A stretch of 64,000 nucleotides of DNA from positions 72,912,001 through 72,976,000 of the forward strand of contig CM060732.1 of the NCBI GenBank assembly GCA_030704615.1. The letters are read 5' to 3'. Source of the DNA: Takakia lepidozioides. Lineage: Eukaryota; Plantae; Bryophyta. The position numbers were made by a program, and so were the translations under genes. Every line of letters begins with the position of its first letter. Within the stretch, counting starts at the first letter, position 1. Positions 37,554 through 62,929 of the stretch are shown here, piece after piece. Below the pieces are notes generated by a model that made no database searches, was not told where the DNA came from, and worked only from the letters and a program-made list of their open reading frames with translations.

Positions 37554-39857
37554 TCACCAGTAATCTCCACACGAACAAACCCCATCTCGGAAATGGTGAA
37601 AACAGTTGGTATCCCGCACAACAATTGCTCACCCAACAATCTTCGAGATGAACTTGATGGCCTTATGACAGTCACCACACACACGAAGGTTATTGATGAC
37701 ACGGATAGGAGTTCCAGGTGGCGTGCTGATGAGCCCAAATGCTATGGCCAGCTTCTCACTGTGCTGACAAATAGAAACTATCTTTCCACCTTCCTCCAGA
37801 TCATGCAATGCAAAGCCAGTGTCAGCCACATACCCAGCCTCCTTCAAATGTCCAGACAATATCGTTAGCTCTGCAAGGATTACCTCAATTTGAGGATGTG
37901 ATTTGTCTTCCACCAAAAATGAATGCACCCGGTTGTTGATCTCAATGCAGCTATGCCCTGGCACCTTCCTGACACCTAAGTCTTTCATCAGTTTTCTCAC
38001 CTTCGCTTGATCATCCCACCTGCCAGCCGCAGCATAGATATTTGATAGCAGCACATAAGGAGCCGAATCCAGTGAATCCAACTTGATAAGGCATTGTGCC
38101 ACATGTTCTGCAAGCTCCACATTGCCATGAATCCTGCAGGCACCAAGCAGGGCCCGCCACACTGAACCACCGGGTTCAATTGGCATTTTCTTAATAAAGT
38201 CCTCCGCCGCATTGAATCGGCCTGCACGGCCAAGAAGGTCCACCATGCAGCCAAAATGCTCCATTGCAGGAGTGAGGCCGTGATCTTGACTCATGGAATC
38301 AAAGTATCGATTGCCTTAATCCACTAGGCCCACATGGCTACATGCAGAGAGAAGAGATACAAAGGTGATACTGTTTGGTTTCAACCCTTCCTTTTGCATA
38401 TGTTCAAACAGTCGGAGGGCTTCCTTACCGCAGCCATGCTGCCCATATCCTGCTATCATTGCACTCCAAGAGACCACATTTCGCTGGGCCATCTTGTTGA
38501 ACACATGACATGCATCGTTCATGCTCCCACATTTGGCATCTATAAGACTATTCTCCAAGATGATATTGGACCCAATTTTGGCTTTGCTGATGTCAGCATG
38601 AACCTCTGTGCCCTTTGCCAACGCTGCCAAGCTAGCACAGGCATTGAGAACGGAAGTGAAAGTGACCTTATTGGGCTTAATTCCTTCCTGTATCATTTGA
38701 CTATAGGCCTCCAAAGCCTCAACACCACACCCATTTTGAGAATATCCTGCAATTAATGTACTCCATGAGACCACATTTCGTTCGGTCATATTGTCAAATA
38801 CGTGGTGTGCATCCTTCATTCTCCCGCATTTGGCATACAAGTTAACAAGGGCAGCAGTCGCTGAGACCACATTTCAATGAGTCATGTTGTCAAACACTTG
38901 CAGTGCATCCTTAATGCTACCGCATTTGACATACATGTCAGCAAGGGCAGTCTTCAAAACAATGTCTGCTGTAATTCCAGCTTTGAGGATGTGAGCATGG
39001 ACTTCTTTGCCCTTTTCCAGATCTGGAAGGCTGGCACACGCAGTGAGAATGCCAAGAAAGGTAACCTTGTTTGGCCTCACCCCTTGCTGTATCATACGCT
39101 CATATATCTTTAAAGCCTCCCTACCACACCCATGCTGAGCATATCCTGCAATCATAGCACTCCATGAGACCACATTTCGCTGAGCCATACTGTCAAACAC
39201 TTCACAGGCGTCCTTCGTGCTCCCACATTTGGCATACATGGAAGCAAGGGCAGTGTCCAGAACAATATCTGTAGTAATGCCTGCTTTCACAATGTCAGCA
39301 TGGACCTTTTTGCCCTTTTCCAGGGCTGCCAGGGTGGCACACGCATTGACAACACAAATGAATGTGACCTTATCGGGCAACACACCTTCCCCTATCATTT
39401 GCTCATAGACCTCCAAAGCCTCCCTACCACAGCCATGCTTGGCATATCCTGTTATCAGTATATTCCACGTACATATATCTCGTTCAAGCATTCTCTCAAA
39501 CACTATGCGTGCGTCCACCACGCTCCCGCACTTGGCATACATGTTCACAAGGGTGTTCCGTAGATAGATGTTTGGCTTGAACCCACTTCTGGTAATGTGG
39601 GAGTGCACCTGCTTGCCCTCTGCTAAGCCTTTCATCTTGATACAATCCTGCAAAAGACAAATGTAAGTATTGGAGTCTGCGGAAAAGTCTCGTCGGTTCA
39701 AAAGGTGGAGCGCCTCTTTCAGTTGTCCTGCCTTATACAGTAAACCCACATCCCCACAAGTCCTGGAGGGGTTCTTGTTGACTCCCTCCGGTAGTCCTCT
39801 TTTGACGGCAGTGAGCATCGTGGAGGTGCGTAGCTCAAACGACTGGGCCTGATTCAA
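37554..39857 (-). pseudogene. PLS-E-DYW PPR (organellar RNA-editing factor type) with three in-frame stops
   Basis: ORFs 38874-39857, 38316-38870 and 37629-38294 share one frame; HSEKLA, CGDCH and terminal CSCGDYW* (stop 37554-37556); premature stops at 38874, 38316, 37629. Confidence 0.9.
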
Positions 39858-40654
39858 CTCGGCCCTCCTGCATAAATAAGAACTGTTAGTTATAGACCTT
39901 CACGCTCAGAACTAAATCAAGTGGTCTCAAAGGCGAACATATCAATACTCTATACACCTAGCCAACAGTCTTCACAGACTGGTAATCCGTCAGGACATGT
40001 TTTTTGCGTATATAGGGGATTTTTGAACGGTTGCTCTGTACAGGCTGGTAACAATTGTACCAACCCGGGCCAGACCTTACAAAGTCAGCATCTACGTAAA
40101 AACCCCACTGGGCGACCCACATTTTATCGGTCCAATTCTGTCTTCAGGGAGAGAAGCCACTATGACCTCATCAAGAAAAAACGAACTCTGCTCCTGGGAA
40201 TCTGCAAATTTGTGGCTCGTGAGCAAACTAATGAAAGCATTTTGCAAACACCTGGACTCACAGAGAAAGATCCGAAGTGCTGAAGGTCACCGTCTGTGAA
40301 AAAGGAGGGACTGTCTTTCTAAAAGAAACGCCGCGACAGTCCCCCTCCACCAGGGCTCCCCGCAAAGTTTCGCCGAGCTCCTTCCAGCCCCTCCAATTGA
40401 CCATCTAGCCACCTGGGCTTCTTGCAGCTATCCATTCATAGTACCCATTCTTATTCTCGTGCTTGGAAACCTGGTCCTCCGAGATTGATCTGAACCAACT
40501 ACCTCCCCGATTCGAACACGGATCGGTATTCACTGAAAGTCACTAATGCTGTCAACCCACCTTGATTAGGGTTTTTACCGGTATTTGTCGTATAAGAAAT
40601 CTGATAATTTGCTGAAAGTAGATTTTTGCATCCAACGCAAATTTTCGCATAGGA

Positions 40655-43600
40655 TCATGGAATGGAAACATCCATGGCAGATGTGGGATGAGATGCGGAA
40701 AGAGAGAGTCATTGGATCTCTAAAGGAGCGATATGAGGAGTGGGGAGAGCCATACACGGAGGATCGGTTGGAGGCCAAGGTGGCCAAGGCTCTTGAAGAG
40801 GTTGAGGATGTTCCTTTTGCAAAGCATGTTCTCAAGGTGGCTATGGCGGAGCAAGTGGAGTTTACGCCACAGTCAGGGTGGGCGGACAAGGCCCAAGAGG
40901 TTGCTATCTAGCAATCAACGGATGCATCTCCTACCTCCAAGCCTGGTGTTCCCAAGGTTGCAGGGACAATTGGGAACCAGATGTTGGACCTACAGTCACC
41001 GGAGGAGAGAGACAGAGGATCCGGCGATTTCTAAAGGCTTATAGAAATTACTTTGCCTTTGGTTTGAAGGATTTGGGGAGTTTGAAGGGCCTGGTGATTC
41101 GTATTGATTTGGCAAGTGACACGCCAATTTTTCGAAGGCCCTACAAGTATAGTGACAAGGAGAGGTCATTGATCCAGTCACGGACTATGGAGTTGTTCGA
41201 AGCTGGATTGGTGGAGTTGTCAGGCGGGGAGTATGCCTCAGCAACGGTGATACTAGCTAAGAAGGATATCTATGGCAATTGGACAGAAAGAAGGATGTGT
41301 GGGGACTATCATCCTGTGAACCGTCAGACTAAGTCCGATAGATATGTCATGCCAACTCCAGAGGAAATCTTTGATGTCATTGGGCATGCGAAGGTATTTA
41401 GCACATTGGACTTACGATCGGGTTATCACCAGTTGCCAATCAAAGAGGCTGACAAGCAAAAGACGGTATTCTGGGGGATTGATCAGCATGGGAAAGATTG
41501 TTTGTACCAATGGCGCTTCCTATCATTTGGGTTGAAGAACGCTTCTGCAGAGTTTCAGAGGGTCATGGATAGGATTCTTGCAGGGCTAGACTTCGTCCAG
41601 TGCTACATTGATGACATCATCATCTTTAGTGCCACGGTTGAGGAGCATACGAGACATCTTCAAGTGGTGGTGTTTGAGCGCTTGAGGGCGCATGGATTGA
41701 AACTGCACCCTGGAAAGTACAAATTCTTCCACGATCAGATTGAGTATCTGGGCCACATGATATACCTTGGAGGATTGGGTGTTCAACAGACAAAGGTGGA
41801 GGCCATTGCACACATTCCACATCCCATAGATGTAAGCAGAGTTCGTGCTTTCATAGGGTTGGAAAACTACTATCGTCGGTTTGTCAAGGGATTTAGCAAC
41901 ATTGCAAAGGCTCTTATCAAGTTGACGAAGGTGGGTCAGGAGTGACAGTGGGAGGAGGAGCAAGAGGAAGCCTTTGAGGAACTCAAGGCTCGATTGACTT
42001 CTGCGCCTATTCTGAGGCGGCCTATTTGGGGGTGGTCTTTCCAGCTACATACGGATTGGAGTATGCTGGGGATTGGAGCAGTGCTCACATAGGTGGATAA
42101 TGAGGGAAGAGAGTTTGTAGTGGCATATGTTAGCCGCTCGAACAATGATACTGAGGTGAAGTATAGCTCATATGAAGAAGAGTGTCTAGCTGCAGTATGG
42201 GCAGTGACACATTTCAGATGCTATCTCTATGGCAATATCTTCACCTTTGTCATGGATCACCAACCATTGAAGTGGTTGATGGAGTCAGACAAGCTTACAG
42301 GAAAGCTTGCACGGTGGGCACTTATGCTTCAAAAATACGACTTCCAGGTGGTGCATCGAACCAGAATAGTAAACCGGGATGCGGATGGATTGAATCGCAA
42401 TCCATGCACAAGTGAACTTGATGATACAGGAGCTCTTTGGCATGGTGAGACGGACGAGGAGATGGTGCCAGGATGGCACGCATCTGCCTTTTTATGCATT
42501 CTAGCAATGGGAGCTCAAGCTGGTCCATCCCATGTGATTGGTCATAGAGATAGTGTGCATGACGATCCAGAGATCAGTAAGGAGGTTGGTGGTGCTAAGG
42601 ATGTGCTTGAAGATGCAGCAGTGTTGGCCTACCTTCGTACTGGAGAGACAACAGTTAGTGTGACTGCTAAGAAGAAAGATCGGATCCTACAACGAGCCAA
42701 GAGGTTCAAGTGGGAGAGGACTCACCTACTCCCGAGTATGGGAGGATGGACGAGTGAGGATTGTGCCTCATCCAACACAACGAGCGCGATTGGTACGTCA
42801 TGCCCATGAGAAGTTGGGACATTTTGGGGTGCGATGCACTCATAGTTTGCTGCAAGAACAGTACTGGTGGCGAGGCATGCATACAGATGTGCAACAGTTA
42901 GTGGCAAGGTGCATGGTATGTGATAGAGTGCGGGCTTCTTTCAATGCCCCTACTCCACAATTGCATCATTTACGGGTTTGGGCTATCATTGGAGCATTGA
43001 CTTCGCAGGCCCATGGTCACTAACGATTTGTCATAACAAGTATGTGCTGGTGATGGTGGAACATTTCTCCAAATGGATTGAACTGGTGGCATTGCCTGAC
43101 AAGACAAGTGATGGGGCTGCATATGCATTCTTAGATCGAGTGCTTAGCCAATTTGGTGCTCCAGCCGAGGTACCCACGGACCAGGGGAGAAAGTTCTTGG
43201 GGGAGTTTCAGGCTTTGTGTGAGCAAGCCTTGATAAATCACTGCACTACTTCTCGGGATCATCCCGAGGCTGATGGCTTGGCGGAGAAAGTTGTTCAGAC
43301 AGTCAAGAGAGGCTTGCATAAGTATGGCTTGCAGAAGGGACACGTAGGGGATTGGGACCTTCAGCTACCTTGGTTGGCTATGGGCTACAGGTTTAGCAAA
43401 CAAGCATCGCTTGCCTCATTCTCACCTTACTTTCTTCTCTTCGGCCGAAAGCCAGATTTGTCTGCATCTATTCGCAGGGAGGCTGCAGTAGTCCTCAACC
43501 TTGATGATCCGAATGTGTAGACACAAGCATGTGCACAGCGGGCAGAATTGTTCAAGAGAGTCATGCCTATGGCTTTTGAGAACCTTGCTATTGCCCAACA

Positions 43601-44298
43601 CCGAGACACATTAAGGTATGTCACTATACGTAGAGGCGGATATCGACCTGGTGTTTGGAGATTCAATCCTGGGGACTATGTGTATCTGCAGCAGACAGCA
43701 CCTACGACCTTGGATGTCACAATAGGACGTGTGATTCTAAGGGTCAAGGAGGTGTTGTCTTCAGGAGTGTTGATTCTTGAAGGTCGAGATGGCATGGTGT
43801 GGAAGGATCATGTGCGCAATTGTGCGCCATGTCACCTCCCACATGTGGATGAGATGATAGATCCCAACCTTGCAGTGGTACCTGCAGGGTTGCGTTGCAT
43901 GCTATGTGGGCATGCTGGTGGTGCCGTCACCATACTGGTGTGTGATAAATGCTCAAGGGGGTGGCATATGGGATGCTTGACACCGCCACTTGAGGAGGTT
44001 CCTAGCGGAGAATGGTTGTGTCCACGATGCCTTGGACAAAGATAGTGGACATGACAATGGTGAGGTTCACAAGGACCCAAGGTCTAGTAGTGGAGGTTCA
44101 ACGCCATGGATTCCCCAGTGAAAGCCATGGATTGCAGGAAGGCGACTAACGATGGGGCTACTTTTGCACCCGGCCTCTTAATCTATCGACTTCGGATACT
44201 GGGGATTTGTGCGATTGAAGACCAAGCAGTGATCTTATTAGGTTGGATACTTGTCAGCTATCTAGTGTTAGAAGGATCTAATCACCAGCTAGGGGGGC
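40655..44298 (+). mobile_element. Element 1: 5'-truncated Ty3/Gypsy pol (RT, RNase H, integrase, PHD) and PPT
   Basis: RT (LDLRSGYHQ, YIDD), RNase H (TDWS, DHQPL), integrase HHCC and D,D,E, C-terminal C4HC3 PHD; PPT AGGGGGGC at 44291-44298 continues as GAT-TG after 55965. Confidence 0.9.
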
Positions 44299-44476
44299 TG
44301 TCGTGCGCATACATATCGCTACATAACTACATCGCTGTTCAAAACCACACAACACATGTGCACGCCACACACTAGTATATCACTAGTCCACCACTAGTCC
44401 AACCACTAGGCTACAACTAGTCAGTCACTAGGCTGCCACTATGCTGCCCACTATGGCAGTCACTAGTCCACACAAT
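44299..44476 (-). repeat. Terminal repeat B2
   Basis: Near-identical direct copy of 44805-44994. Confidence 0.9.
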
Positions 44477-44802
44477 GATAAAGAAGAAGAATACAAGCAC
44501 AAGTTCATGCGAGCTCACAAAGCTGAAGCATAAACTCATGCATATATAACCTCATCACTCAAATACAAGTCAAGCCAAGTGCACCCCACGCCATGGGGAA
44601 TCCACACTACGGCGCCATAGCTAAGCGCAGTGAGGCTCAACTCGATAAAGATGAGCCTCCCGCGCTTGCCGTGAAGATAACCACTCTAGGGCCTAAATCT
44701 GCCTTGACCCCTGGATTGACACTTGGGCCAATCCCAAATATCAATATGTAAAAGCTAGCTATTTCCTAGCTAGTTTCACACTAGTGGTAAAATAACTTGA
44801 CA
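44476..44802 (-). repeat. Repeat A2
   Basis: Near-identical direct copy of 55688-55961 (A1 lacks about 50 bp). Confidence 0.9.
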
Positions 44803-44804
44803 GC

Positions 44805-44994
44805 TGTCGTGCGCATACATATCGCTACACAACTACATCGCTGTCCAAAACCACACAACACATGTGCACATCACACACTAGTATACCACTACTCCACCAC
44901 TAGTCCAGCCACTAGTCCAACCACTAGGCTACAACTAATCAGTCACTAGGCTGCCACTATGCTGCCCACTATGGCAGTCACTAGTCCACACAAT
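44805..44994 (-). repeat. Repeat B1, immediately after the PPT
   Basis: Minus strand reads AGGGGGACGAT-TGTGTGG...CGACA-GC-TGTCAAG. Confidence 0.9.
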
Positions 44995-45003
44995 CGTCCC
45001 CCT
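44993..45003 (-). promoter_or_regulatory. Polypurine tract of element 2
   Basis: AGGGGGACGAT preceded by CACCAGCT, the same context as in element 1. Confidence 0.7.
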
Positions 45004-45233
45004 AGCTGGTGCTTAGGTCCCTCTAAGTCCAGGTAGCCACAAGATGTGATAGTGACCATAGCCTCATTAAGTCCTCCACCACTATCCCTACTACACTCAA
45101 ACTCGATAGATCAAGAGGCCGAGTGCAAGAGTTGCCCCATCGTTAGTCGCCATCTTGCAACCTGTGAACTTGAGCTTGGGATCTCATGTATTGACTCATA
45201 TGAGCTTGGCCTCCCATGTCTTGTTAGCTGCCT

Positions 45234-45596
45234 CCAACATGTTCGCAGAAGCATCTGCCCGGCTTCATTGAGAAGGCCGACGAACTTCGAGCCGCCGGCG
45301 TCGACACCCTCGCATGCATCGCTGTGAATGATGTCTTTGTGTTGAGGGCGTTTGGGGAAAGTGTGGGAGCAGGTGACAAGGTCCTGCTGTTGTCGGATGG
45401 TTTGGCAAATTTTACAAAGGCACTGGGTGTGACTGTTGATCTCAGTGACAAGCCTGTTGGGTTGGGGGTTCGATCACGCCGGTATGCACTTTTAGCTGAA
45501 AATGGAGTTGTGAAGATCTTGAATCTCGAGGAAGGCGGCGCATTCACCATCAGTAGCGTGGAGGAGATTTTGAAGGCTCTCAAGGCAGTTGTCTAG
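45234..45596 (+). pseudogene. Captured 5'-truncated type II peroxiredoxin (PrxIIE-like), antisense inside element 2
   Basis: [49 protein letters not shown]; open and intronless but lacks the N-terminus. Confidence 0.9.
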
Positions 45597-45689
45597 GCAA
45601 GAACAAGTCCCTTTTGGGAACACTGGATGCACAAGTCTTTAGGACACGCTCGCTTAGCCTGCACTAAAGAAGATCATGTCCACTGCCAC

Positions 45690-46950
45690 TATCCCAAGCA
45701 GTGTGGACACAACCAATCTCCGTCAGGAACCTTATCAAGAGGTGGTGTCAAGCATCTCATATGTCAACCCCTTGAGCATCGATCACACACCAGCATGGTG
45801 GCTGCCCCTTTGGCTGACCCACAGAGCATGCACCTCAAACCTGCAGGTACCACTGCCAAGTTTGGGTCAACTCTGCCATCGACATTGGGAAGGTGACATG
45901 GCGCACAATTACGCACATGGTCCTTCCAAGTCATGCCATCCCGACCCTCCAAGATCAGGATCCCTGAGGGCAACACCTCTCGAACCCTCAGAATAACACG
46001 CCATGCAGTAACATCCAGAGTCGTAGGAGCAGTCTGCTGCAAATAAGCATAGTCACCAGGGCTAAACCTCCGAACCTCAGGACGATATCCTCCACCACGT
46101 ATAGTGGCATACCTCAACGTATCACGGTGTTGTGCAATGGCAAGGTTCTCAAAGCATGGGCATGACTTTCTTAAACAACTCTGCACGCTGATCACATACA
46201 CGTACCCACACGTCCGGATCGTCAAGGTTAAGGACTTGAGCAGTGTCCCTACGAATGGCTGCAGGCAAATCCGGCTCTTGGCCAAAGAGAAGGAAATATG
46301 GTGAGAATGAGGCAAATGATGCTTGTTTGCTGAACCTGTAGCCCATGGCTAACCAAAGAACCTGAAGATCCCAATCTCCTAGGTGTCCCTTCTGCAAGCC
46401 ATACTTGCGCAAACCCCTCTTCACCGTCTGAACAACTCTCTCTGCCAAGCCATCGGCCTCAGGATGATCCCGAGAAGTGGTGCGGTGGTCTATCAAGGCT
46501 TTATCACACAAAGCCTGAAACTCCCCCAAGAACTCTCTCCCTTGGTCCGTGAGTATCTCAGCTGGAGCACCAATCGGCTAAGCACACGATCCAAGAATGC
46601 ATACGCAGCCCCCTCACTAGCCTTGTCAGGCAATGGAACCAACTCAATCCACTTGGAGAAGTGCATATCTGTGGTGGCACATAGTCAGTGGCAATGGTCC
46701 TGCGAAGTCAAGACTCCACCTGTAGCCCAATCCCATGATTGGTAAAGGATGCAACTGTGGTGTAGGGGCGTTGAATGAAGCACGCACCCTGTCACACACC
46801 ATGCACCTAGCCACGAACTGTTGCACCTCTGTATGCATACCACGCCACCAATACTGCCCCTGCAGTAAACTGTGAGTGCGTCACATTCCAAAATGCCCCA
46901 ATTCCTCATGGGCATGCCACACTAACCGTGCACGCTGTGTGGGGTGAGGC
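45690..46950 (-). pseudogene. Integrase (HHCC, DDE) plus C-terminal PHD finger of element 2
   Basis: CMVC, WSLDFAGP, DGLAERVV, CMLC..CDRC..HMRC..WLCPHC; frameshifts and stops present. Confidence 0.9.
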
Positions 46951-47169
46951 ACAATCCTCACCTGACCATCCTCCCACACTCAAAGTAGGTGTATCCCCTC
47001 CCACTTGAACCTCTTGGCTCGTTGCAGGATCCGATCCCTCTCCCTGGCAGTCACAGTGGCTGCGTGTCTCCCGTGCGAAGGTAGTCCAACACAGCCGAAT
47101 CCTCATGTATATCTGTGGCACCACGTGGCTCATCACTAGCCTCAGGGTCCTCAGACACTCCATCTACAA

Positions 47170-48600
47170 TCATCCCGGCACCATCTCCTCGTCCGTCTCA
47201 CCATGCCACCGAGCTCCAGTGTCATCCTGCTGGCTCGTGCATGGATTGCGACTCAATCCATCCGCATCCCGATTGACCAAACCCGGTCGATGCACAACCT
47301 GAAAGTCATACTCCGGGAATATGAGTGCCCACCGTGCAAGCTTCCCCGTAAGCTTGTCTGACTCCATCAACCACTTGAGTGGCTGGTGATCCGTGACAAG
47401 GGTGAAAAGATTGTCGTATAGATAGCACCTGAAGTGTGCCACGGCCCACACTGCAGCTAAGCACTCTCCCTCATATGAGCTGTACTTAGCCTCTGCAGCG
47501 TTGTTCGAGCGGCTAGTATAAGCCATTACGAACTCTCTTCCCTCATCATCTACTTGTGTGAGCACCGCTCCAAGCCCCAGCATGCTCCAATCCGTATGCA
47601 GCTGAAAGCGACGCCCCCTGATAGGTTGTCTCAGGATAGGCGCTGAGGTCAACCTCGCCTTGAGTTCTTGAAAAGCTCGTTCCTACTTATCTTCCCACTG
47701 CCACTTCTGGTCCACCTTGGTCAGCTTGGTTAGAGCCTTTGCAATGGCACTAAATCCCTTGACAAACCGTCTATAATAGTTTGCCAACCCCATGAAAACT
47801 CGAACTCGGCTCACATCCGTGGGGCGTGGAATTTGTGCAATGGCCTCTACCTTAGTCTGTTGTACCCCCAATCCTCCAGGATATATCATGTGACCCAGAT
47901 ACTCAATCTGGTTGTGGAAAAACTTGCACTTCCCCGGATGCAACTTCAATCCGTGCGCTCTCAAGCGCTCCAATACCACCTGAAGGTGTCTCTCATGCTC
48001 CTCCACCGTAACATTAAAGATGATGATGTCATCTATGTAGTACCAAGCAAAGTCCACCCCTGCTAGAATCCTATCCATGACTCTCTGAAACTCTGCAGGA
48101 GCATTCTTAAGCCCAAATGGTAAGAACCGCCACTAATATAGGCAATCATTGCCGTGCTCATTGATCCCCCAGAATGTCGTCTTCTGCTTGTCTGCCTCCT
48201 TGATCGGCAACTGGTGATATCCGGATCGTAAATCCAAAGTGCTAAAGACCTTAGCATGCCCGATGGCATCAAAGATCTCCTCTGGTGTTGGCATGGCATA
48301 CTTATCAGACTTGGTCTGACGATTTACAGGCCGGTAATCACCGCACATACGTCTCTCCGTCCAATTGCCATAGACATCCTTCTTGGCTGGCATCACTGTG
48401 GCTGAAGCATACTCTCCACCAGAGAGCTCCAGCAAACTTGTCTCCCAGAGATCTTGAGTCCTCATCTGGATCAAAGACATCTCCATGTCACTGTATCTAT
48501 AGGGTCTCCGAAAGATTGGCGTGTCAGTGGCCAACTCAATACGGATCTCTTGACCCTTCAGTGCTCCCAAGTCCTTCAAACTGAAGGCAAAGCAATTCAT
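47170..48600 (-). pseudogene. Reverse transcriptase and RNase H of element 2
   Basis: LDLRSGYHQ, YYIDD, HTDWS, TDHQPL; three ORFs in one frame split by TAG stops. Confidence 0.95.
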
Positions 48601-48798
48601 GTAAGCCCTCAGGAACCGCCGTATACGTCATCTTTCTCCTCCGGTGACAATGGGTCCAATGTCAGGCTCCCAATTGTCCTCCGTAACTGCAACCTTAAGT
48701 CCAGTGGGCTTAGAGGTAGAGGACGCGTCCAGTGGTTGCTATGTTGCAACCTCTTGAGTAGTACTCCCTACCTGCTCAGTCAGTGACAAGGCCTCATC

Positions 48799-50115
48799 CT
48801 ACCCCATCATCTCATCCTCAAGGACTTCCTCCACCCGAGAAAAATCCCCAACCTCATCCATCACCGCCACCTTGGCTGCCAACTCCCTCTGAACCTCGAA
48901 CACCTCCCACGTGTGCCATGGATGCCTGCACCCCGTGGTCCTCACATGCTCGCCCCCACTCACTGCCTGTACCATCTCGGTAGGCAGAGAGACCATCGAG
49001 GGAAGTGTACTCCGCACTCTGTGTTGCTCAGCCATAGCCAAGCTGATAATCCAGATCAAGCAATTGAGATCCATTGCTTGCCCCAACACCTGACGATGTG
49101 ATGCCTCAGAAAGAGACGACACCGCCGTGGTACTAGTGGTAAAACCCATTGCCCGCTCATGCTCGTCGGCATTAGGCTCCACTAACTGCTGCAACTGAGC
49201 ATCCCACAGGAGGCCAGGTCCACTATCCCGGAAAGCATGCGATCCTGGGAAGCTAAGCAGTGTAGGTAATGCTACTCGTGGTTGACCCACCTTGTTGACC
49301 ACTGCCAAAGGCGAACGGTCATCGTGTCTCACACGCTGAGACTGCCTCCTTGTGTCCAGAATGTTATCCACTGTGAAATGTATTGGGCGCTGCACCCCAT
49401 CAAATGCACGCTTGAGCAGTGCGGGTGGCATCAAGTTAGTCCACCATAGCCGTGGACAATGAGCCCGTGACCCCACTGTAGCTGCATCTAGCAACACTGC
49501 TGACCCAAGCCACGACCGGACTTGATGCACACTGGCCATCACCCTGGCCCGAGAATCACCCATCAGTGGCACATTCTCCAAGATGCATGTTGGAGATACA
49601 GCTTGATGAAACTGCAAGTGGCGCAAAACCCGCACCATCTCCCAAAACAGACCCGTCCTCGAGTCTCGCAATCCATTGCCATGCCCGGCTGATGAATGCC
49701 CTTGGCAAGGCCAACCTGCCATTACCAGATCAATGGAGCCAACCCATTCCTGATCATGCGCCCCCAGCAACGAAATGTCTGCTGGCAAGGCCTGCTGATA
49801 TCCACGAACTGCAGACACCCACAACAACTCAGGGTACCGCTGCACCAACTGAGCAACATGGCAAAGTGAAACGCGTCGTGCAGTCTCATCCCTCTCCACA
49901 TACAGGTAACGCCGAACTCGTACACCTGCCTGTAACACAGCAGCCAATCCCATGCTGATCCCGCCAAACAAGTCCAGAAGACAAATGCCTTCATCGGGAT
50001 ATTGCCACACAATAGGTGTGGTGTTCACTGGAGACAACTGAGGTGGTCCTGGTGCAATCCCCGCACTCTCCTCCTCTTCTGACGATACAAAAGCCTTAAC
50101 CCAGGCTTGTTGCAC
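48799..50115 (-). CDS. DNMT3-like C5 cytosine DNA methyltransferase domain within retrotransposon Pol
   Basis: Motif I LLDLFGGISMG, II YVERD, IV DLVMAGWPCQG, VI ILENV, VIII AHCPRLWW, IX ERAMGF, X RQVLGQAM; same frame as the protease (50134-51210) and RT (48133-48600) ORFs. Confidence 0.92.
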   Translation of the reverse strand: MQQAWVKAFVSSEEEESAGIAPGPPQLSPVNTTPIVWQYPDEGICLLDLFGGISMGLAAVLQAGVRVRRYLYVERDETARRVSLCHVAQLVQRYPELLWVSAVRGYQQALPADISLLGAHDQEWVGSIDLVMAGWPCQGHSSAGHGNGLRDSRTGLFWEMVRVLRHLQFHQAVSPTCILENVPLMGDSRARVMASVHQVRSWLGSAVLLDAATVGSRAHCPRLWWTNLMPPALLKRAFDGVQRPIHFTVDNILDTRRQSQRVRHDDRSPLAVVNKVGQPRVALPTLLSFPGSHAFRDSGPGLLWDAQLQQLVEPNADEHERAMGFTTSTTAVSSLSEASHRQVLGQAMDLNCLIWIISLAMAEQHRVRSTLPSMVSLPTEMVQAVSGGEHVRTTGCRHPWHTWEVFEVQRELAAKVAVMDEVGDFSRVEEVLEDEMMG

Positions 50116-50133
50116 CTGTCGATCAGCATCCCG

Positions 50134-51210
50134 CTACAAATCCTTACTCGTGCCCCACAATGGAGTCTGAACAACCATGGTAGGCAACTCCGCCATACCA
50201 TACATGTCATCCTGCTCTCCCGGAGATGGCACATCCTCTGAATGAGCGTTGCCCTCAAGCAACTCTCCAGGCCAACCCACTGCCGCTGTGAATGCTGCTA
50301 GTGTCGGCATTTTGCCTCGTTGGGCAACCGCAACTCCTCCTATGAACGTCACAGGGAGCTGCACACGCCGGCCCTCCTCTGACTGCCATGCAGGCCTATA
50401 GGAAGTTGGCTCCTCCCAAAAATCCAGGGTGAAGCCCATGGGGTACAACACTGCCCCACCAACCAGGACATCGTATGAGACTGCGTCTGTCACAATGGCC
50501 TTGGCTCGCATCACTGAGCCATTTGTAGGGTGATCCGGCCGTAGTCTGATAACCAACTCACGCTGTGTCATGCCTCGAGCCTGCTCCGATCCTCCCAGAG
50601 ACGTCTGTATCTGGAAAGGACAAGGCTCCATATCCGCCTCCGTGAGGCCCAAGTCTGCAATAGCAGCTCTGCCCAACATCAATGGCTGAGCTCCCAAGTC
50701 CAACAAGACCCGCAATGGCCGGTACCTCTTGTCTGTCGGTCCCCTCAAACAGAAAATGTCATCCTGGTTGTCTAACATGACAACTCCAGGTGTTACCATG
50801 GTGCGCTCAATGGCTGGCCTAGCTGGCAACTCCATCAACCTGGCAGCTGCAGCTTGCCATGGCGCCGCCGTGGCAGTCTTGACCCTCAAATCCGAGGATC
50901 CCTCCGGCACTATACCTCCCACTATCTCCGCAGAAGATGAGGTAACCTCCTCACTCTCACAGAGTGTAGCTGCCAGCCTGAACACCTCAGCTGGTCTTAC
51001 CCCCGGCGTCACAACCATGGTAGCCGAGACCAATGGAGCCTGGCACATAGATGTGGCCAATCCTAGCAGCACACTAGCTGCCGTAGCCTTGGCAACACTA
51101 GATAGTGGTGCTACCCGTGTAGCTCTTCCCAATGGCATAGTAACCTCCGCCTCGGTAACAGTCGGGCGAGAACTAGGTGCCATGGATGACGACGACACTA
51201 TCTCCGCCAA
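50134..51210 (-). pseudogene. Retropepsin-like aspartic protease region of element 2
   Basis: VLLDLGAQ (degenerate DSG) and YDVLVGG motifs. Confidence 0.75.
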
Positions 51211-51299
51211 TGTGAATGACTGAGGAAGCCTAGCCTAATGGCTTGCTTCCCCACGCTGTGGATCCAACTCCACCTCTGCACCTCGTGGCTCAGGAACTC

Positions 51300-52873
51300 G
51301 CTGCTTCTCGAGTCACGGCTGCAGCAAACTCCACCTACACTAGTGGTAGTGCTGCTCCGCACATGAATCCCATGTCTCCCATATCTCCTCCCTCAGGAGC
51401 TGGAGGTGGACCATCTGGCCTTGGAGCCAGTACCACCTGAGCTGTAGCCATGGCAGCGAGCCTCTGCTCTAGCTGTTGAAGCCGGTTGGCCATGCCTTGG
51501 TCAACACCCTGACCTCCGCGTCCTTGGCCATGTTGAGCTTGCCCTTGGCCTGCACCTCGTGCCTGGCCACCTCGTCCTCTCTGGGCTGCTCCACCTCACC
51601 CCCGGCCACCATTGTTCCCTTGGAACTGGCCTGGGCGCAACTCAGGATGCAAACCATAACACTGGGCCTCTCCATGCCCGTGCTTGCCACAATGCCCACA
51701 CTGCAACTGTGCAGGCTGTGCATGTGTCGGCCCTTTGCCTCCATCTGGGCAATCCTTCTTGACATGGGGTCCTTCACATGTCCAGCATACCACATCCGCC
51801 CGTTGTTGGCCAGCAAATAAAGGGAGAGACCCCTGCATCTGAGGTTCGCTCTGCCCTTCCCTGAGCTTCACCTGAGCCCCTTTGTTGCCTTGAGCACGTT
51901 GAGGTAGTGGTTGGCTAGGAGCACCACTACCCCGTGGTGTCTCCTTAGCAAATCCCACCATGACCACTCGTTCCTCTACCATGTTGAGCTCTATCCGCTC
52001 TGCCAGCAAAAACACATTTGTTAAGGTGGGTTGGGCCGCTTGTAGGAGAGTTGCATCCCGCACCCTTCTCCTCAGCTCCTTGTCCAATATCCCATATCAG
52101 AATTGGACTGCCTGAGCTTCCGTAACCCCTTGGGTTACATTTATCAAGCGCCTCATGCGAGTGAAAGCCTCCCTCAAGCTCTCAGTAAGCTTCCGTTGGA
52201 ACTCTTGCAAGCTCCGCAACTTTTTTGTCCTCACCTCTTGGTAGTTCCCTCTCAATTCTTCGAAGAACTCCACAACAGGGTTGAAGGCAGGCACGGGTAC
52301 TGGTGCTGGTGCAGTAGTGGCTTGGGTGGACGTCGTAGCTACGGTACCACCAGTCCTACTAGTCCCACTGCTGTTTGCTGAAGCTGCCGGTGCAGCGGCA
52401 GGTGTAGCCACTGCCCTCGTGACTCTAGTGCCCCTAGTGATGGAGACATAGTCGGGTGACCAGTACATCCTCCACTCCTTGATCTCAACCTCATGCCCCC
52501 ACCTGAACTCATGGTAATCATCCATAGGCGGCCCCTCAAGGTGCTGAAACAGCCCCTTCCATGCCATGAAAGGCGTAAATAGTTGTGGATTGCGCATTTG
52601 CTACAAAACACACCAACTATCAAACTCTTCGATAAAATCATCCAACTCGATGGTGCCCACCGCCCCAGAGTACCTTCGTGGCCCCTTGGTAGCTCCATAC
52701 ATCTCCTCCATTGTGTCCCACAACAATGGCAAGGAAACAACTTGCACTGCCGGTATGAGTCCTCCTAATTCACAATCCGAATCAGAACCTTCCGTAGAAG
52801 ACACAGGAGGTGAAGGTGGCCTAAACCGCACACCTTGTCTCGTGTACCCACTAGTATCGCTACGAACCGGCAT
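51300..52873 (-). pseudogene. gag of element 2 with two CCHC zinc knuckles
   Basis: ORFs 52601-52885, 52097-52597 and 51596-52087 share one frame; CWTCEGPHVKKDC and CGHCGKHGHGEAQC; probable ATG at 52873. Confidence 0.85.
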
Positions 52874-53619
52874 TGTCCCCAGCAACTAGTGGCACCTCCG
52901 TGTTAACACTCAACCGGTCATGAACATGTCCCTAACCCCCTCTCCACAAGGTAACCGGGTAGAGAACCTGTCACGGCTTATGGTTTGGAATACTAAGTTC
53001 CTAACATAGCCTACACCTGTACCTGCATCCACCGCAAGCACTCCTATGGTTGGCTGGTCATCACCTCCAACCTCACCACAGGAGAAACAATGATGGTCTG
53101 GCTGGTCATCACCCCAGCCTCACCATCGACAGCATGCTCTGGGACTGGCCGGTGATCAAATCCGGACCAATCACCGATAAAAACAAGCGCCCACACAAAA
53201 CTAGCATGGCGCACAGTCAAGCATGCAGGTATGGAGGGGATCCACACACAAGAAATTAGAACGACAACTCCTCCACACCAAAAACAACTCCACGGTGTTG
53301 CTCCTGCAAGGATACCCCAGCCCAAACCCGGACTGACTCTTGCCGCCACCTACGGAAAGGTCTTGGCCTAATGAGAGGGTGGAAACTACGAGGAAGAGAA
53401 GCTAAAGCAATGCCTAACCCCAGCATGCCCTCATCCCAACACTCTTCCTCTCCTCTCTTCCCTCACTTGCATGACCATGGGAATATCATGAAGATACTCC
53501 TCAAACCGCCCTCCACGAGCTTCAAAATTCGGCCTTCAAGACCACATGTCAGTCCTTAGGCAGTCCACCAGTGCCTCCACGAGTCAGCACAGGTCAACAC
53601 GGGCCACCACAGACCAGCA

Positions 53620-54160
53620 TAGGCCCACACAGCTCACTGGTCACAGCCGTCACAGCCCTACACAGGTCACAAGGTCACAGCCCCCACGGCCACAGGTCAC
53701 AGCCTGTCATAGCCCATCACAACCCCAAAGGCCACAGGCACAGTCTGTCACAGCCCTACAAAGGTCACAGGGTCACAGCCCCAAAGGCCACAGCCTGTCA
53801 CAGCCCCTCACAGCCCATAGGCCATAGGGCACAACCTGTCACAGCCCGCCACAGCCCCACATGCCACATGGCATAGCCTGTCACAGCCCTACATAGGTCA
53901 TAGGGGTCACAGCCCCAAAGCCACAGCCCCTCACAGCTCGCCACAGCCCGTCACAGCCCCACAGGCCACAGGGCACAGCCTGTCACAGCCCTCATAGCCC
54001 GTCACAGCCCCACAGGCCACAGGCCACAGCCTGTCACAACCCCTCACAGCCCGTCACAGCCCCACAGGCCACTGGACACAGTCTGTCACAGCCCCTCACA
54101 GCCCCACAGGCCACAGGGCACAGCCTGTCACAGCCCCCCACAGCCCCACAGGCCACTCAT
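53620..54160. repeat. CACAGCC-based minisatellite in the element 2 leader
   Basis: Dozens of GTCACAGCC / CCACAGG variants. Confidence 0.9.
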
Positions 54161-55687
54161 GACAGTTTAGCCATTTCTCCAAGGGGTTTAGCCACGCTAA
54201 GCTAGGGTTTGTGTCTCTTGGACTCTAGGCTTTTTTGCACCGAGCTATGGCGGCTGTGAAGAAATCAGCAAGGTATTCTTGTTCTTTCGGCTCCCACACA
54301 CCACCAATAGTAGCCCTAAGCCATGAGGAAGATGGTTGCCACAAACCAAGCCTTCTTTCTCACTTAGACTCCCCAAACACGCCACTAAACTCAATGGCAA
54401 ACAACCAAGCCTTGCTGGTTTCCAGCCCTTGTGAGCACTCATTCAAGCGTTTCCCTTGGCCATAGCATCTGTCTTAGAGCCTATTCCAGCCCCCTACACC
54501 TGCCACTTCAAGAGCCATGCTCTATCTAGGCTTGAGGTTGAAACCCCAACTCAGAACACGCTCTACAAGTGTCGGACTGTCACATAAGAGCAGATCAGCC
54601 CCTTACCTTCTCTTCTAGTTCTCTAAAGCTTGAAAAAACAAAGCCCAATGGACTGAAGGCATGCTCCACACATGCCCCACTCTCACCACCAGAGAATCAG
54701 CCCCTTTGCTTTCTTTCTTGCACAAACCAACCTGAAAATACACCCTTCAGCGGGCTGGAAGCATGCTCCACATATGCCCTACAGGGAAACCAGCCCCTTC
54801 ATTCCTTTCTTGCACTCCCAAACCTGAAAGTACAAGCCTTCAACAGGATGAAAGCATGCTCCACACATGCATTGCTCTCACATAAGGGAAGTCAGCCCTT
54901 CCCTCTTCCTTGCTTGCCCTCCAAGCTTGAAGATGGAAGCTTCAATGAGCTGAATACATGATCCACACATGCAACCTCTTCACACAAGAGGTATCAGCCC
55001 CCTATCTTGGCTCCTTAGCTCCTTGATGTTCTCTAAGACAAGACTAAGCACTCCACAGCCCTTGCCAAGCTCCTGAAACCCTAAGGCTTACATTTCCAGC
55101 CACAAAACACTCCTCTTGTGGTGCAAGAGCTCTTCTTCCAAGCTCTGAAACCCTAGGTGCAGATTCCATAGCCTTGCCGCACCTCTTAGCTCATGTTCCA
55201 GCCCTGCTCTTGCCATGATAAGAGCCATCTCAATGCTGAAGCTCGAGATTGAAACCCAATCTCAACATACTCCACAAAGTGCACTAATTTGCCCCAAGCC
55301 AAATCAGCCCTTTCGCTTGGTCTTGCAATCCTTCACACAATGAAAGCTCACATTCCCAAGTCCAATTCTCAGCTTTGCCACCAAAGCCACTATAATCTGC
55401 TCTTGACTGGTCCTCTTCCCAATCGTGCTTGCTCATGCATGTACACAATTTGAAACCATCAAGGTGCTCTGGAATTACCTGCAGCATGGTGCTTTCATCT
55501 CTGAAGCTGAAGATCGAATGCCAAGGTCTACCACCTCGTAACCCACATCGCCTCCGCTTCTAACAACCAAGAGCTCAACGGTGCTCCTTGCATAACAACC
55601 TGGTTTCTCTCATTCTCAAGCAAAAACCACAAGTGCTACAACTAACTCATATCTGGCACTCACAGATACGAGCTCATCTTTATCGAG

Positions 55688-55961
55688 TGATAAAGAAGAA
55701 AAATACAAGCACAAGCTTATGCGAGCTCACAAAGCTGAAGCATAAACTCATGCATATATAACCTCATCACTCAAATACAAGTCAAGCCAAATGCACCCCA
55801 CGCCATGAGGAATCCACACTACGGCGCTATAGCTAGGCGCGGTGAGGCTCAACTCGAGAAAGATGACCCCTGGATTGACACTTGGGCCAATCCCAAATGT
55901 CAATATGTAAAAGCTAGCTATTTCCTAGCTAGTTTCACACTAGTGGTAAAATAACTTGACA
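55688..55961 (-). repeat. Terminal repeat A1 (5' end of element 2)
   Basis: Begins TGTCAAG and ends TTTATCA on the minus strand; copy of A2. Confidence 0.9.
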
Positions 55962-55965
55962 GGGC

Positions 55966-57044
55966 GATTGTGGCATAACTTTCTAGGATTGTGTGCTTAG
56001 AATGTATGGTGGACAACGATGTATGTTGTGGCACGATGCTTAGGTGCACGACAGCTGTCATGGTTTTAGTCATGGTTAATTAGAATTATCCACTTCTAGT
56101 TAATTATAACATTTTGGATATTTATATTTGTATTTTGTGTGTTGGGACTTCATTTGGTCTCATATGCCAAGTGAGGTGTCAAGCCGCACTTGGGACATGG
56201 GGATGGATTTTCCCTTTGTGAGGGTTGAGGAGGGCTCATCTTCTTGTAGTTGAACCTGTATGAGCCTCTTTCACCTCCATAGCTCCAGGTATTGAGAGGG
56301 AGTGTGTTGAGGGCTTTGTAGGGTGGATTTCCTTAGCAAGGGTGCTCTTGGCTTGACTTAGTTTATGTGATTGAGTGGATTCATGAATGGAGTGTTTCCA
56401 TTATGTTCACTTCCATTATCAAATAATGATATATGTGCATGGCTGAGCAACGGAGATTGCAAACATTGGTGGCTACTTCTGCACTTCCATTGGATATTGC
56501 ACCATCTCTGCCAACCGGGACGATGGAGGTAGTGAGTGGGGGCGAGCACATGATCATGGGGTGCAAAGAGAGAATCATTGGCACCCATGGCAGATGTGGG
56601 ATGAGATGCGCAAAGAGAGAGTCATTGGATCTCTCAAGCAGCAGTATGAGGAGTGGGGAGAGCCATACACTGAGGATCAATGGCAAAGAAATAGCTTGCA
56701 CCTGCGGGGTGGATTTCTCAGAGTCTGAATCAGAACCCTCCTCAGAAGACACAGAAGGTGAAGGTGGCCTAAACCGCACACCTCGTCTCGTGTACCCACT
56801 AGTATCGCTAGTGCTCGTACCGGCATTTCCCTCAGCAACTAGTGGCACCTCCGTGATGAAAACTCACAACCACACCTGTTATAAACCTGTCTGTAATCCC
56901 CCTTTCCACAAGGCAACCGGGTAGAGAACGTGTTGCAGCTTACGGTTTCTATCCACTTTCATTGCTAGTTCGATTGTGGCATAGCTTTCTTTGTGTGCTT
57001 GGTGGACAGCAATGTATGTTGTGGCACGATGCTTAGGTGCGACA
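55966..57044 (+). mobile_element. 3' end of element 1: B1' (55969-56053), GC, A' (from 56056), scrambled internal pieces, B2' (56975-57044)
   Basis: B' copies near-identical; junction CGACAGCTGTCA; A' shares blocks with A (GGCTCATCTT, CTTGGCTTGACTT). Confidence 0.8.
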
Positions 57045-59328: not shown

Positions 59329-62300
59329 TTACTCAAGCGTGAAGTACCAAGGTGGACATACCTTCTCATGCCTCATGTGTCTGTTCTCGTCCTCCAATCT
59401 CTCAAACTCCTCTCTAGATACACCATTTATTTGAGTAAGACTTTGCTGTTGGTTAACTCTTCGTTGCTCCGATAAGAGGTAACGCAATTCCCCAAGACAC
59501 CTAAGAGCGTTCTCTTTATCGGCAACAGCACATGCCAGTTTTCTGTCACCCTTAATCTGTTTTTCCTCCAAAATGGCAGCCTGCTCCTCAAGGTGATCTG
59601 AGATCATGTGTGCCTGCCCAATTCTCCCTGTCAGGGCCTCCTTCTCTTTCTCCAACAAAGAAAGAGCCACACGAAGATTGTCACGCTCTTGCGTAAGAGA
59701 TGCATTCTCAGCCACCTTCTCCTTCCTAATCAGAGCCAGCTCATTCTTTAATACAGATAGCTCCACTTTCAAAGCATCCTCAAGTCTCTGTGTCGAGGCA
59801 TCCTTCTCCCTCTCCCTTGAAGAAACTGTTGCATGCAGGCTCTCAAGCTCATGCATAAGTGATTCCTTCGCCAACATCATGTTATCCCTCTCTTTGGCTG
59901 TAATGGCCAGTTGCTCATTCAACAACTGCACTCTTGGGACAAGCTCATCAAGCTTCTGTTTGAGAGACATTTCAGAAGTGGCCATCGTCTCCTTCTCCAC
60001 TCTCACCACAGACAACTCATTCTTTATGGAGCAAAGCTGCACTTCCAGATCCTCCTCGGTTTTCTTTGTCAAGGCAGCCTTCTCCCTCTCCAGCGCAGAA
60101 AATGTTGCACGAAGATGGACAAGGTCTTGCATGAGAGATTCATTCCCTAGCACCATCTGCTCTCTCTCTTTGTTTGCATTGGCTAGCTGTTCCTTCAGCA
60201 AATGCACTGTTGCGACCAGCTCCTCAAGCTTACTTCTGAGAGTCACTTCAGAACTAGCAATCCCCTCCTGCTCCTGTCTTGCCTTTCTCAACTCATTCTT
60301 CAATGAAGAAATCTCCACATTGAGATCGTCCTCAATTCTCTTTGCCAAGGCATCCCTCTCTTTCTCTAACAAAGATATTGATGTATGAAGGTTGTCACGC
60401 TCTTGTATAATGTCATGAAGCTTCTGTTTTAAAGATACCTCAGAAGTAGTCAACCTCTCCTTATCCCTCACTGCTGAGCCCAACTCATCCTTTACTGAAG
60501 AAAGCTCCACACTAAGGGTCTTGGCCTTCTCAGCCAAGGCAACCCTCTCCCGCTCCGACAAAGAAAATGCAAACTGTAGATCATCAAGCTTTTGAACAAG
60601 TGCCTCTCCCTCCAGACTCTTTCTGTCGGCAGTGGCTACTTGTTGCTTCAGCGAATCCACTGTTGTGAGTTGCTCCTCAAGCTTACAACTATCAGACACT
60701 TCAGAAGCAGCCAGCCTCCCCTTCTCCTCCCTTGCCATAGCCAACCTACTCACAGATGAAACCTCCACATTGAGATCACCATATACTCTCTTTATCAACT
60801 CATCCTTCTCTTTCTCTAACACAGAAATTGACACATGAAGGTTTTTGCACTCTTGCATAAGCCCATCAAGCCTCTGTTTTAGAGACACCTCAGAAGTAGC
60901 TAACAGCTTCTTATCCTCCACTACCAAATCTAACTCCTCCTTTACTGAACAAATCTCCACATTAAGGTTCTTGGCCTCATCAGTCAAGGCAGCCTTCTCC
61001 CTTGTAACCAAAGCAAGTGCTGTGTGAAGATCATTGAACTCTTTCAGAACAAGTGCTTCTTTTTCCAGACTCGTTTTCTCTGCAGTAGCTAATTGTTCCT
61101 TCAGTGAATGAACTGTTTTGACAAGCTCTTCATGTTTACACTGGAGAGAGGCTTCAGAAGCAGCCATCTTCTCCTGCTCCTTCCTTGCCGTAGCCAACTC
61201 ATTCCTCAACGAAGCAACCTCCACATTGAGATCGTCATCAATTCTCTTTGTCAATACATCCTTCTCTTTATCAAACAAAGGTACTGATGCAGAAAGGTTG
61301 TCATGCTCATGCATGAGCACATCAAGCCTCTGTCTTAGAGACCCCTCAGAAGTAGCTAACCTTTCCCGATCCTTCACTGCCAAATCCAACTCCTCCTTTA
61401 CTGAACAAAGCTCCACATTAAGGTTCTTGGCCTTCTCAGTAAATACAACCTTCTCTCTCTCCAAAAAAGAAAATGCCACTTTAAGATCATCAAGTTCTTG
61501 AAAAAGTGATTCCCTCTCCAGTAAAATTTTCTCCCTTCCTTTGGCTCCAGTATCCAAACCTTGTTCATTCAGTGAACCGACTGTTGCCTGAACCTGATTG
61601 AGCTTCTGTGTCACAGGTACTACAGGAGTATTCATCCTTTCTTTCTCTTTGACCACCATGGCTTGCCTATCCTTTTCTGTGGCTGTCACAGACAGCTCTT
61701 TCTTCACTGCGGAACATTCTACTTGTAGTTGATTGAGTTCATGTGTAAGAAACACCTCCCGTGAAGCTAGCCTATTCTTCTCTTTGATTGCTGCAGCCAG
61801 CTGTTCCTCCAGTGAACTGCTAAATGCACGGAGATTAATGAGGTCTTGCACAAAGAGCACCGGGTCATCCTTAGCTAATGTGGCCTCCTGTTTGGCTGCC
61901 CTGGCTAGCTCATGTCGCAAACACTCAATGTGTGCGCTGAGATGAAGGTTTTCAATTTCCATAGAGCATAATTTCTTATGCGCACTATCCCTCTCTTTCA
62001 CCAACACTGATTTTTCTGCCACAAGTAACTCCTGTTGTGCACTATCCCTCTCTTTCACCAACACTGCATTTTCTGCCAGAAGTACCTCGTACTCCCCTTG
62101 CAGTTTTGCAAATTTTACTTCCAGCTTCTTTACTTGGCTATTGGCAACCTCAAGGCCTATTTGCTCTTCCACCCTCTTGGCCATAACCTTGTGTTCCTCT
62201 TGCAGGCTCTTGAACTCTCTCTCTTTTTTCTCCAGTGCTGCCTGACACCAGTCATGCTCCCTCGTCAGGACTGAATTGTCTACCATACTTGACAAGTGAT

Positions 62301-62628: not shown

Positions 62629-62929
62629 TCGAAAGTTCTCTACCAGTGTCGCCTAGGACAAAGACCAGTATGCTATCAGTTTATACCCATTGTATCTCAA
62701 GAGCTGCAGGGATCACGATGCCCCATGTGTCAGGCATAGTTGCATGCCTTGGGCTTTTTAGAGGAGATAATGACTGAAATAAAGGAGAAGGAGCTCTAGA
62801 AATATTTTAAGATCTGCAGAAACTCTCCACACAAAACTCCTTTTACTTTCTTTCTTCGTCCTCTTCTGCAGGACTGAACAGAAAAGCCAATGCAAATTGT
62901 CAAGTTCTTGAAACCAATGTACGAAGCAA

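Follow-up and report, generated by a model that had tools for sequence, protein, structure and literature searches.

Why would a retrotransposon carry the enzyme that silences it? The question dates from 2018 and has stayed unanswered because the organisms known to host such elements are difficult to work with. A 64,000-nucleotide stretch of the Takakia lepidozioides genome (hereafter, the window) raises it again. The earlier note on this DNA had described a Gypsy element with a DNMT3-like methyltransferase built into Pol. Relatives of this element occur in Marchantia. Hence, the role of the enzyme is testable in a genetic model.

The reading frame encodes a DNMT3-like domain

We focused on the methyltransferase reading frame. 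On the minus strand, it runs from a GTG at 50115 to a TAG at 48799–48801 and encodes 438 amino acids (444 from stop to stop). The profile search suggested in the earlier note matched this frame to PF00145 (E = 3.2e-11; 43.7 bits, cutoff 22). As that note had recognised, the cytosine methyltransferase motifs are unpermuted. They start at 49977 (I), 49902 (II), 49734 (IV, PC), 49584 (VI, ENV), 49464 (VIII), 49164 (IX) and 49092 (X). A phmmer search of PDB sequences ranked DNMT3A (E = 2.5e-9) ahead of HhaI (7e-4) and DRM2 (0.13), which bears out the assignment to DNMT3 rather than to permuted DRM. We also searched with an AlphaFold model (pLDDT 71.6, pTM 0.77). Foldseek returned DNMT3A as the best match (E = 4.6e-13) and DNMT3 entries made up 39/39 of the matches listed. 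Judged by sequence and predicted fold, the domain is DNMT3-like and unpermuted, where likeness to DNMT3 denotes the nearest solved relative. In the ESM Atlas, a single streptophyte cluster with PF00145 scored the same as two clusters from phage.

Neither stop bounding the frame is typical of the family. At the upstream stop (50134–50136), >99% of the summed depth in sequencing run X1, the best-matching run from the window species, reads otherwise. The frame's own stop (48799–48801) was found in 1/39 aligned rows. Hence, the 438-residue frame is a decay fragment.

The window copy is a dead Ty3/Gypsy element

The element occupies 11,663 bp (~11.7 kb; 44299–55961) of the minus strand and encodes Gag, protease, methyltransferase, reverse transcriptase (RT), RNase H, integrase and a PHD finger (Table 1). 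Pfam, tblastn and the domain order of related loci identify the Ty3/Gypsy order, protease-RT-RNase H-integrase, with a DDE integrase. The methyltransferase lies between protease and RT. All four domains named in the earlier note (protease, methyltransferase, RT and RNase H) share a frame, as it had deduced from start offsets (51210, 50115, 48600, 48078 and 47652) that are multiples of 3. For the protease, PF13650 is matched in relatives and Pfam found no match on the window copy. A second copy is also present. Here, the matches to PF00665 and PF00628 are both strong. The main element was inserted in the polypurine tract of this second copy, whose B repeat picks up again at 55966.

Table 1. Parts of the element and adjoining features, with positions in the window
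Feature	Position	Strand	Basis or remark
4-bp target-site duplication, 5' copy	55962..55965	-	Identical to 44295-44298
Left-end repeat A1 (TG...CA); probable promoter-R-U5 section of LTR	55688..55961	-	Self-blast to 44476-44803
Primer-binding-like site; complement lies inside A	55672..55687	-	Tf1-type self-priming, inferred
Gag, two zinc-knuckle-like motifs	51300..52885	-	Stops, and frameshift near 51300; tblastn with Marchantia P0001, 49%; weak PF03732
Aspartic-protease-like region	50350..50805	-	54% to matching P0001 region; active-site motif altered here
DNMT3-like C5 cytosine methyltransferase domain	49030..49992	-	PF00145; DNMT3A best by phmmer and Foldseek
Conserved in-frame stop TAG CAA CCA, TMV-type 3' context; likely readthrough site	48733..48741	-	39/39 rows, 28/28 loci
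Reverse transcriptase and RNase H	47190..48615	-	PF00078, PF17917; stops interrupt
Integrase region and C-terminal PHD finger	45698..47100	-	Frameshifted; weak PF00665; tblastn
Host peroxiredoxin-II gene fragment	45237..45673	+	PF08534; window copy only
Polypurine tract	44994..45003	-	Motif CCAGCTAGGGGG; same before B in loci
Repeat B1 with CA end; probable distal U3	44805..44993	-	90% to B2
B1/A2 junction, palindrome GACAGCTGTC, GC spacer of 2 nt; probable site of integrase cleavage	44798..44809		Junction recurs in loci
Repeat A2	44476..44802	-	Self-blast
Repeat B2, right end (CA)	44299..44475	-	Self-blast, end analysis
4-bp target-site duplication, 3' copy	44295..44298	-	Same 4 bases as 5' copy
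Second related copy, 5'-truncated (linker, stop, RT-RH-INT-PHD)	40660..44294	+	~79% DNA identity

The window copy is dead. Stops interrupt Gag and Pol, the frame shifts near 51300 and in the integrase, the protease motif is altered and a motif VIII arginine is lost. The earlier note had suspected inactivity from the arginine; the stops and frameshifts add to this.

Three further observations concern the two copies. First, the right end of the second copy (55966–57040) is rearranged, with a methyltransferase-linker fragment (+, 56430–56678) fused to an inverted Gag start (-, 56678–56950). Second, the peroxiredoxin-II piece is a 3' fragment, and contigs from other copies join 45236 to 45674. The fragment differs at 2/359 bases from a contig that continues into the rest of the gene, while the element's repeats differ by 5–10%. 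Hence, the fragment is likely younger than the element. Third, the long 5' leader of the element contains degenerate tandem arrays (53650–54180 and 54640–55000) with units of ~42–52 nt and ~100 nt.

Elsewhere in the window are PLS-type PPR genes or fragments (37629–39899, 36000–36450 and 2980–4260). Three in 64 kb, one broken by stops, suggest a lineage rich in RNA-editing factors. Two tandem phi-class glutathione transferase genes (16071–16601 and 21754–22404, minus strand) are 79% alike and distant from every named relative. For one glutathione transferase, the best matches are 48–58%, with bryophyte names near the top and weak grouping with Physcomitrium rows. The PPR and transferase genes mark the host as a land plant, and the comparisons lean weakly to bryophytes. 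An AT-rich nest at 8127–10282 holds ATTCAATTGAATTG repeats of 24 nt, arrayed both directly and inverted, and is MITE- or foldback-like. A coiled-coil exon of 1107 aa (59329–62652, minus strand) has internal repeats of ~150 aa.

The methyltransferase is a fixed part of an old family

Protein searches identified 49 long and 120 near-length relatives. Close relatives with names, 60–72% identical, come from Marchantia (up to 72%), Calypogeia and Sphagnum, and there is a partial one in Riccia. A metagenome scan produced 80 loci, most with 55–68% identity. These keep the order Gag-PR-MT-RT-RH-INT-PHD as far as each contig extends, and their linker matches Sphagnum protein P0025. In run X1, 123,385 contig records fall on the element. 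Summed contig depth, a measure of depth and not of copy number, is 0.79–1.15 million over the methyltransferase and 0.89–1.16 million over RT and integrase. The match in depth indicates that the methyltransferase is standard in this genome's very abundant family. Scanning IMG/VR gave 39 pattern matches, of which 0 were confirmed.

Trees of the methyltransferase and RT (28 rows; RT by a quick method, and with locus L079 less than half filled in the methyltransferase alignment) agree on two groups. The first has 11 rows and unites the window, Marchantia and metagenome loci. The second has 12 rows, places the methyltransferase after RNase H and includes the chlorophyte Hariotina. A profile search returned 457 clusters at E < 1e-30. 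It gave 143 new representatives, 30 of which have the full order RT-RH-MT-INT-PHD. The methyltransferase-bearing lineage is old and the domain has relocated at least once. By the same comparisons, the methyltransferase is a fixed, old part of a high-copy Gypsy family of seed-free land plants. A single acquisition of a host DNMT3 by the window copy, through capture or through nested insertion, has negligible probability; we found no support for it, and the fixed position and spacing of the domain in loci and in named bryophyte proteins, the even depth across the element and the congruent trees all speak against it. The same domain in 80 loci and bryophyte relatives, with a between-lineage dN/dS of ~0.1, likewise upholds the earlier note in treating the domain as a family trait.

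Selection was assessed using the 35/80 loci with an unbroken domain match. Between the window and these loci, methyltransferase dN is 0.25 with saturated dS (pS 0.73), giving a ratio of ~0.10. The corresponding ratios are 0.07 for RT and 0.13 for protease. For the test within the main metagenome family, 8 divergent loci were left out. Here, dN/dS is 0.61–0.68 for the methyltransferase, 0.35–0.47 for RT and 0.64–0.66 for protease. Methyltransferase variants shared between loci (0.61) show no stronger constraint than singletons (0.65). Decay after insertion dominates the within-family ratios, and the purifying signal of ~0.1 is one between lineages. The dN/dS comparison proposed in the earlier note favours constraint at that level.

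A conserved stop separates the methyltransferase from RT

The earlier note regarded protease, methyltransferase, RT and RNase H as one polyprotein broken by point stops. This does not hold for the stop at 48739–48741, which is conserved across the family and is not decay. It reads TAG CAA CCA in the window element and TAG CAA TCA in the second copy (40909–40917), the two copies in which it was seen within the window's species. All 38 in-frame loci share it with the window (39/39 aligned rows), and a stop occupies the same codon in 52/56 MT-RT junctions (the exceptions are L070 and L074–L076). With near-duplicates removed, the stop is present in 28/28 independent loci with the modal linker and CAA follows in 26/28. 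Marchantia and Calypogeia models P0001, P0002, P0007 and P0051 terminate at the matching position. Seven Gag-PR-MTase proteins at the 45–49% level, known from the protein alone, stop 99–144 residues past the methyltransferase. Several distant relatives (P0024/P0298, P0029, P0037 and P0048) have methyltransferase and RT in one open frame. Hence, the stop is not universal.

Upstream of the stop, Gag and protease share a frame in 27/35 junctions, and protease and methyltransferase in 39/44. MT-RT junctions are out of frame in 18/56. The conserved stop places the methyltransferase with Gag-protease and not, as first described, in Pol. Taken with the shared frames, it suggests that the main product is likely Gag-protease-methyltransferase, with RT-integrase made by readthrough. 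A CAA-UYA readthrough context of the TMV type is described in the accessible parts of PMC2754532 and PMC3441728. The strict form, CARYYA (UAG CAR YYA), occurs in both window copies and in L004, which is only 1/56 loci; CAACCC is found in 45/56.

In Ogre-like elements the stop is spliced out. Splicing of this type, or reinitiation just past the stop, could supply RT-integrase in an element that is otherwise the same. An ATG lies two codons past the stop in 27/28 loci, CTG, ACG or GTG takes its place in other lineages, and the last CARYYA base is missing from most loci; each is a point in favour of such a route. However, the linker is in frame in three lineages despite saturated dS and different lengths (window 414 nt, L004 393 nt, main loci 351 nt). 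Moreover, CAA is kept after the stop in all three, whereas the ATG is not conserved. We consider splicing or reinitiation improbable. Variation by codon position in the linker had no informative pattern, nor did the RT control. Readthrough of the conserved stop is probably how RT-integrase is made.

Split end repeats suggest a permuted LTR

Split repeats, a 4-bp target-site duplication, a self-complementary primer site and the PHD finger were overlooked in the earlier note. The window element begins with A and ends with polypurine tract, B, GC, A and B; it has TG/CA ends and a 4-bp duplication. Contigs with an empty site join 44295 to 55963, and so skip the element and one duplication. A1 and A2 are 95% identical over 182 nt, and A1 is 53 nt shorter. 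In the loci, 23/23 left ends (not de-duplicated) begin at A with no preceding B. Among 25 loci reaching the PHD finger, the right end is B-A-B in 8 and B in 13; 1 breaks off within A, and 3 have no match. Exact 4-bp duplications flank the window element and 10/10 loci in which both ends are present, which represent 9 independent insertions. No pair of matching terminal LTRs was found; the ends are A and either B-GC-A-B or B. In effect, the family behaves as an LTR element whose LTR is permuted. Hence, programs that look for a matching LTR at each end are likely to overlook or mislabel it. A search for tyrosine recombinase gave no Pfam match in the 14 ORFs scanned; integrase was found.

The 16–17-nt stretch behind A1 is a perfect 17-nt complement to A2 position 148, mid-A. 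Locus L047 has the same arrangement with a different but matching sequence. In loci, a TATA-like box lies ~25 nt upstream of the complementary mid-A segment. The polypurine tract ahead of B and the primer site behind A mark out an LTR with the structure B-GC-A. The palindromic junction is as in the window in L001, L047 and the second window copy, and has decayed to AT in L037 and L072. Retroviral integrases trim two bases, and the GC spacer would correspond to those two bases.

A route from RNA to insertion can be proposed. Briefly, RNA would start inside A and self-prime at the site behind A1, as Tf1-type elements do (PMC4600332, in the portion available). Reverse transcription would give linear DNA with B-GC-A LTRs, and joining of the ends would give a two-LTR circle. 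Integrase would then cut the palindrome CA-GC-TG inside one LTR and insert with a 4-bp duplication. Joined cDNA ends and one internal cut would leave exactly A...B-GC-A-B, with GC as the two trimmed bases. Foamy-virus integrase cuts circle-junction palindromes (PMC1180852, abstract).

We lean towards this circle route. Alternatively, ends might be rebuilt as has been proposed for PAT/TOC1-type DIRS elements: the transcript would extend across B1-A2-B2 and new ends would be copied from the internal junction, with no two-LTR circle. The A1-B1-A2-B2 layout is the same (PMC4157794, in part). This would also account for the absence of A-B-A...B ends (0/23 left ends), a mirror product that is expected from a symmetric circle and that the circle model leaves unexplained. 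The DDE integrase, TG/CA ends and 4-bp duplications point the other way. So does the layout, in which the polypurine tract immediately precedes B1 and the primer site immediately follows A1, as for a B-GC-A LTR. Repeat divergence also bears on the choice. Repeat pairs within elements differ by 8.1% (A) and 6.7% (B), compared with 10.6% and 9.3% between elements. Paired repeats share element-private variants, and position-specific variants number 0. This is as expected if one template served for both, and it counts against rebuilding from an internal junction. Finally, the A2/B2 junction of L037 has an extra insert, a trace such as end-joining would leave. Rebuilding in the PAT/TOC1 style is, in our assessment, doubtful.

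Ends with B only account for 10/17 independent insertions. We considered the B-only form as the product of a one-LTR circle and dropped the idea, since L029 (B only) and L064 (B-A-B) have the same downstream flank, as would result from a post-insertion event or assembly collapse. Another Gypsy element, L035:14607-17192 (RH-INT-PHD), also ends B-A-B with junction ACAGTTGT. Hence, the end layout reaches other subfamilies.

A proposed role for the enzyme

For the Gag-PR-MTase-[stop]-RT-RH-INT-PHD family, the reading that we favour has a probability of roughly 0.6. It holds that the methyltransferase is likely produced in the same quantity as Gag, packaged and directed at the element's own cDNA, with RT-integrase likely produced by leaky readthrough. 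The conserved stop points to a need for the enzyme in amounts similar to those of Gag. At this stoichiometry, and presumably freed by the protease, many copies would be in each particle with cDNA as the nearest substrate. Pre-marking of cDNA before integration would be the favoured role, either as a disguise as self or to limit expression of unintegrated circles. The PHD finger would steer chromatin targeting. For the cDNA itself as target, we put the odds at about even. Methylation of cDNA was proposed for SymbioDIRS-Dnmt3, and de novo CG methylation by this enzyme was shown in yeast (PMC5890265, the text available).

It is rather likely, from residue conservation, that copies with open frames would be catalytically active. 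The catalytic cysteine and the ENV glutamate are each present in 33/35 loci, and FGG also in at least 33/35. Conversely, the first motif VIII arginine is absent from 10/35 loci and one motif VIII arginine is gone in the window copy. The missing arginine is one sign that the domain may now serve the particle without catalysis, by binding DNA or as a structural component, or may be drifting in recent lineages. The within-family dN/dS of 0.6–0.7 is another. A third is the lack of activity from the Klebsormidium relative; KnitGypsy-Dnmt3 gave no methylation in yeast, a result that its authors call inconclusive (PMC5890265, same text). However, the catalytic cysteine, ENV and FGG are kept across bryophyte lineages as well as in the loci. 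The arginines are replaced by His, Cys, Gln or stop, as CpG decay after insertion predicts, and the protease has the same within-family ratio (0.64–0.66). Loss of catalysis or drift is thus unlikely. CpG observed/expected is 0.44–0.60 in the element, not below the 0.46 of the rest of the window; there is no element-specific depletion and this is neutral on function.

A broader scheme is offered tentatively. In this scheme, a Gypsy clade of ancient origin in the green lineage, which is abundant in bryophytes and includes members in Marchantia, might make an active de novo methyltransferase at capsid stoichiometry by a readthrough switch. The enzyme would methylate the element's own cDNA circle and integrase would cut the palindrome inside the LTR, where CHG methylation could pick which site is used. 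If true, this would be a natural LTR element with circle-mediated integration as its normal route, and a mobile DNMT3-type activity in land plants.

Comparison with known systems

The closest described element is KnitGypsy-Dnmt3 of Klebsormidium nitens (de Mendoza et al. 2018, PMC5890265). Going by the text available, it has the same Gypsy domains, an intronless, unpermuted Dnmt3-related methyltransferase under purifying selection, and DIRS-like repeats (Fig. 4 legend). The Gypsy assignment in the earlier note stands on domain order. The kinship of the window element with the Klebsormidium element stands by description; no protein relative among the matches examined bears the name Klebsormidium. 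In KnitGypsy-Dnmt3, as that text presents it, the DNMT is in the Pol ORF with RT and RNase H, whereas here a conserved stop lies between them and the host is a land plant. For its repeats, the same text gives no mechanism, target-site duplication or primer site. The ends described here offer a concrete account of these DIRS-like repeats, noted but unexplained in Klebsormidium. Marchantia is absent from the main text and three supplementary files of PMC5890265, as far as they were available.

In the parts available, PMC12344493 and bioRxiv 10.64898/2026.05.21.726589 place Gypsy-DNMT3 in 'streptophytes', with land plants not named. An opinion piece (PMC6338049, section on this point) states that land plants 'such as tracheophytes' lack methylases of this kind; the liverwort and moss members stand against absence from land plants. 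Excerpts of PMC10952607, PMC9477723, PMC9516144, PMC4157794 and bioRxiv 10.1101/2021.11.30.470311 contain no further land-plant case. The open literature (subscription journals and repeat databases were outside its scope) yielded no account of members in bryophytes, and neither the stop nor the integration route was found described there. Nor did we find a literature description of the green-algal-type elements with RT-RH-MTase-INT-PHD (P0047, P0301 and many others).

These green-algal-type Gypsy elements (Hariotina reticulata P0047/P0301) have a homologous methyltransferase (32–44%), RT, integrase and PHD finger, and the trees are congruent. Their methyltransferase lies between RNase H and integrase and hence at Pol level. 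SymbioDIRS-Dnmt3 and PAT/TOC1 have the same A-coding-B-A-B layout but carry a tyrosine recombinase, whereas the window element combines a DDE integrase with TG/CA ends and 4-bp duplications. In Tf1/Tj1, the primer site is complementary to part of the 5' repeat and Tj1 has a stop at the gag end (PMC4600332, as far as available); these elements have ordinary LTRs and no methyltransferase. Host DNMT3 of animals and bryophytes shares the fold and motif order at ~21% identity. The element methyltransferase differs in lacking PWWP, ADD and the plant accessory domain, and is intronless within a retroelement. Counts of bryophyte DNMT genes may include such elements. A methyltransferase in a Gypsy element with DIRS-like repeats was already known; its occurrence in land plants, the stop conserved downstream of it and the anatomy of the ends appear to be new.
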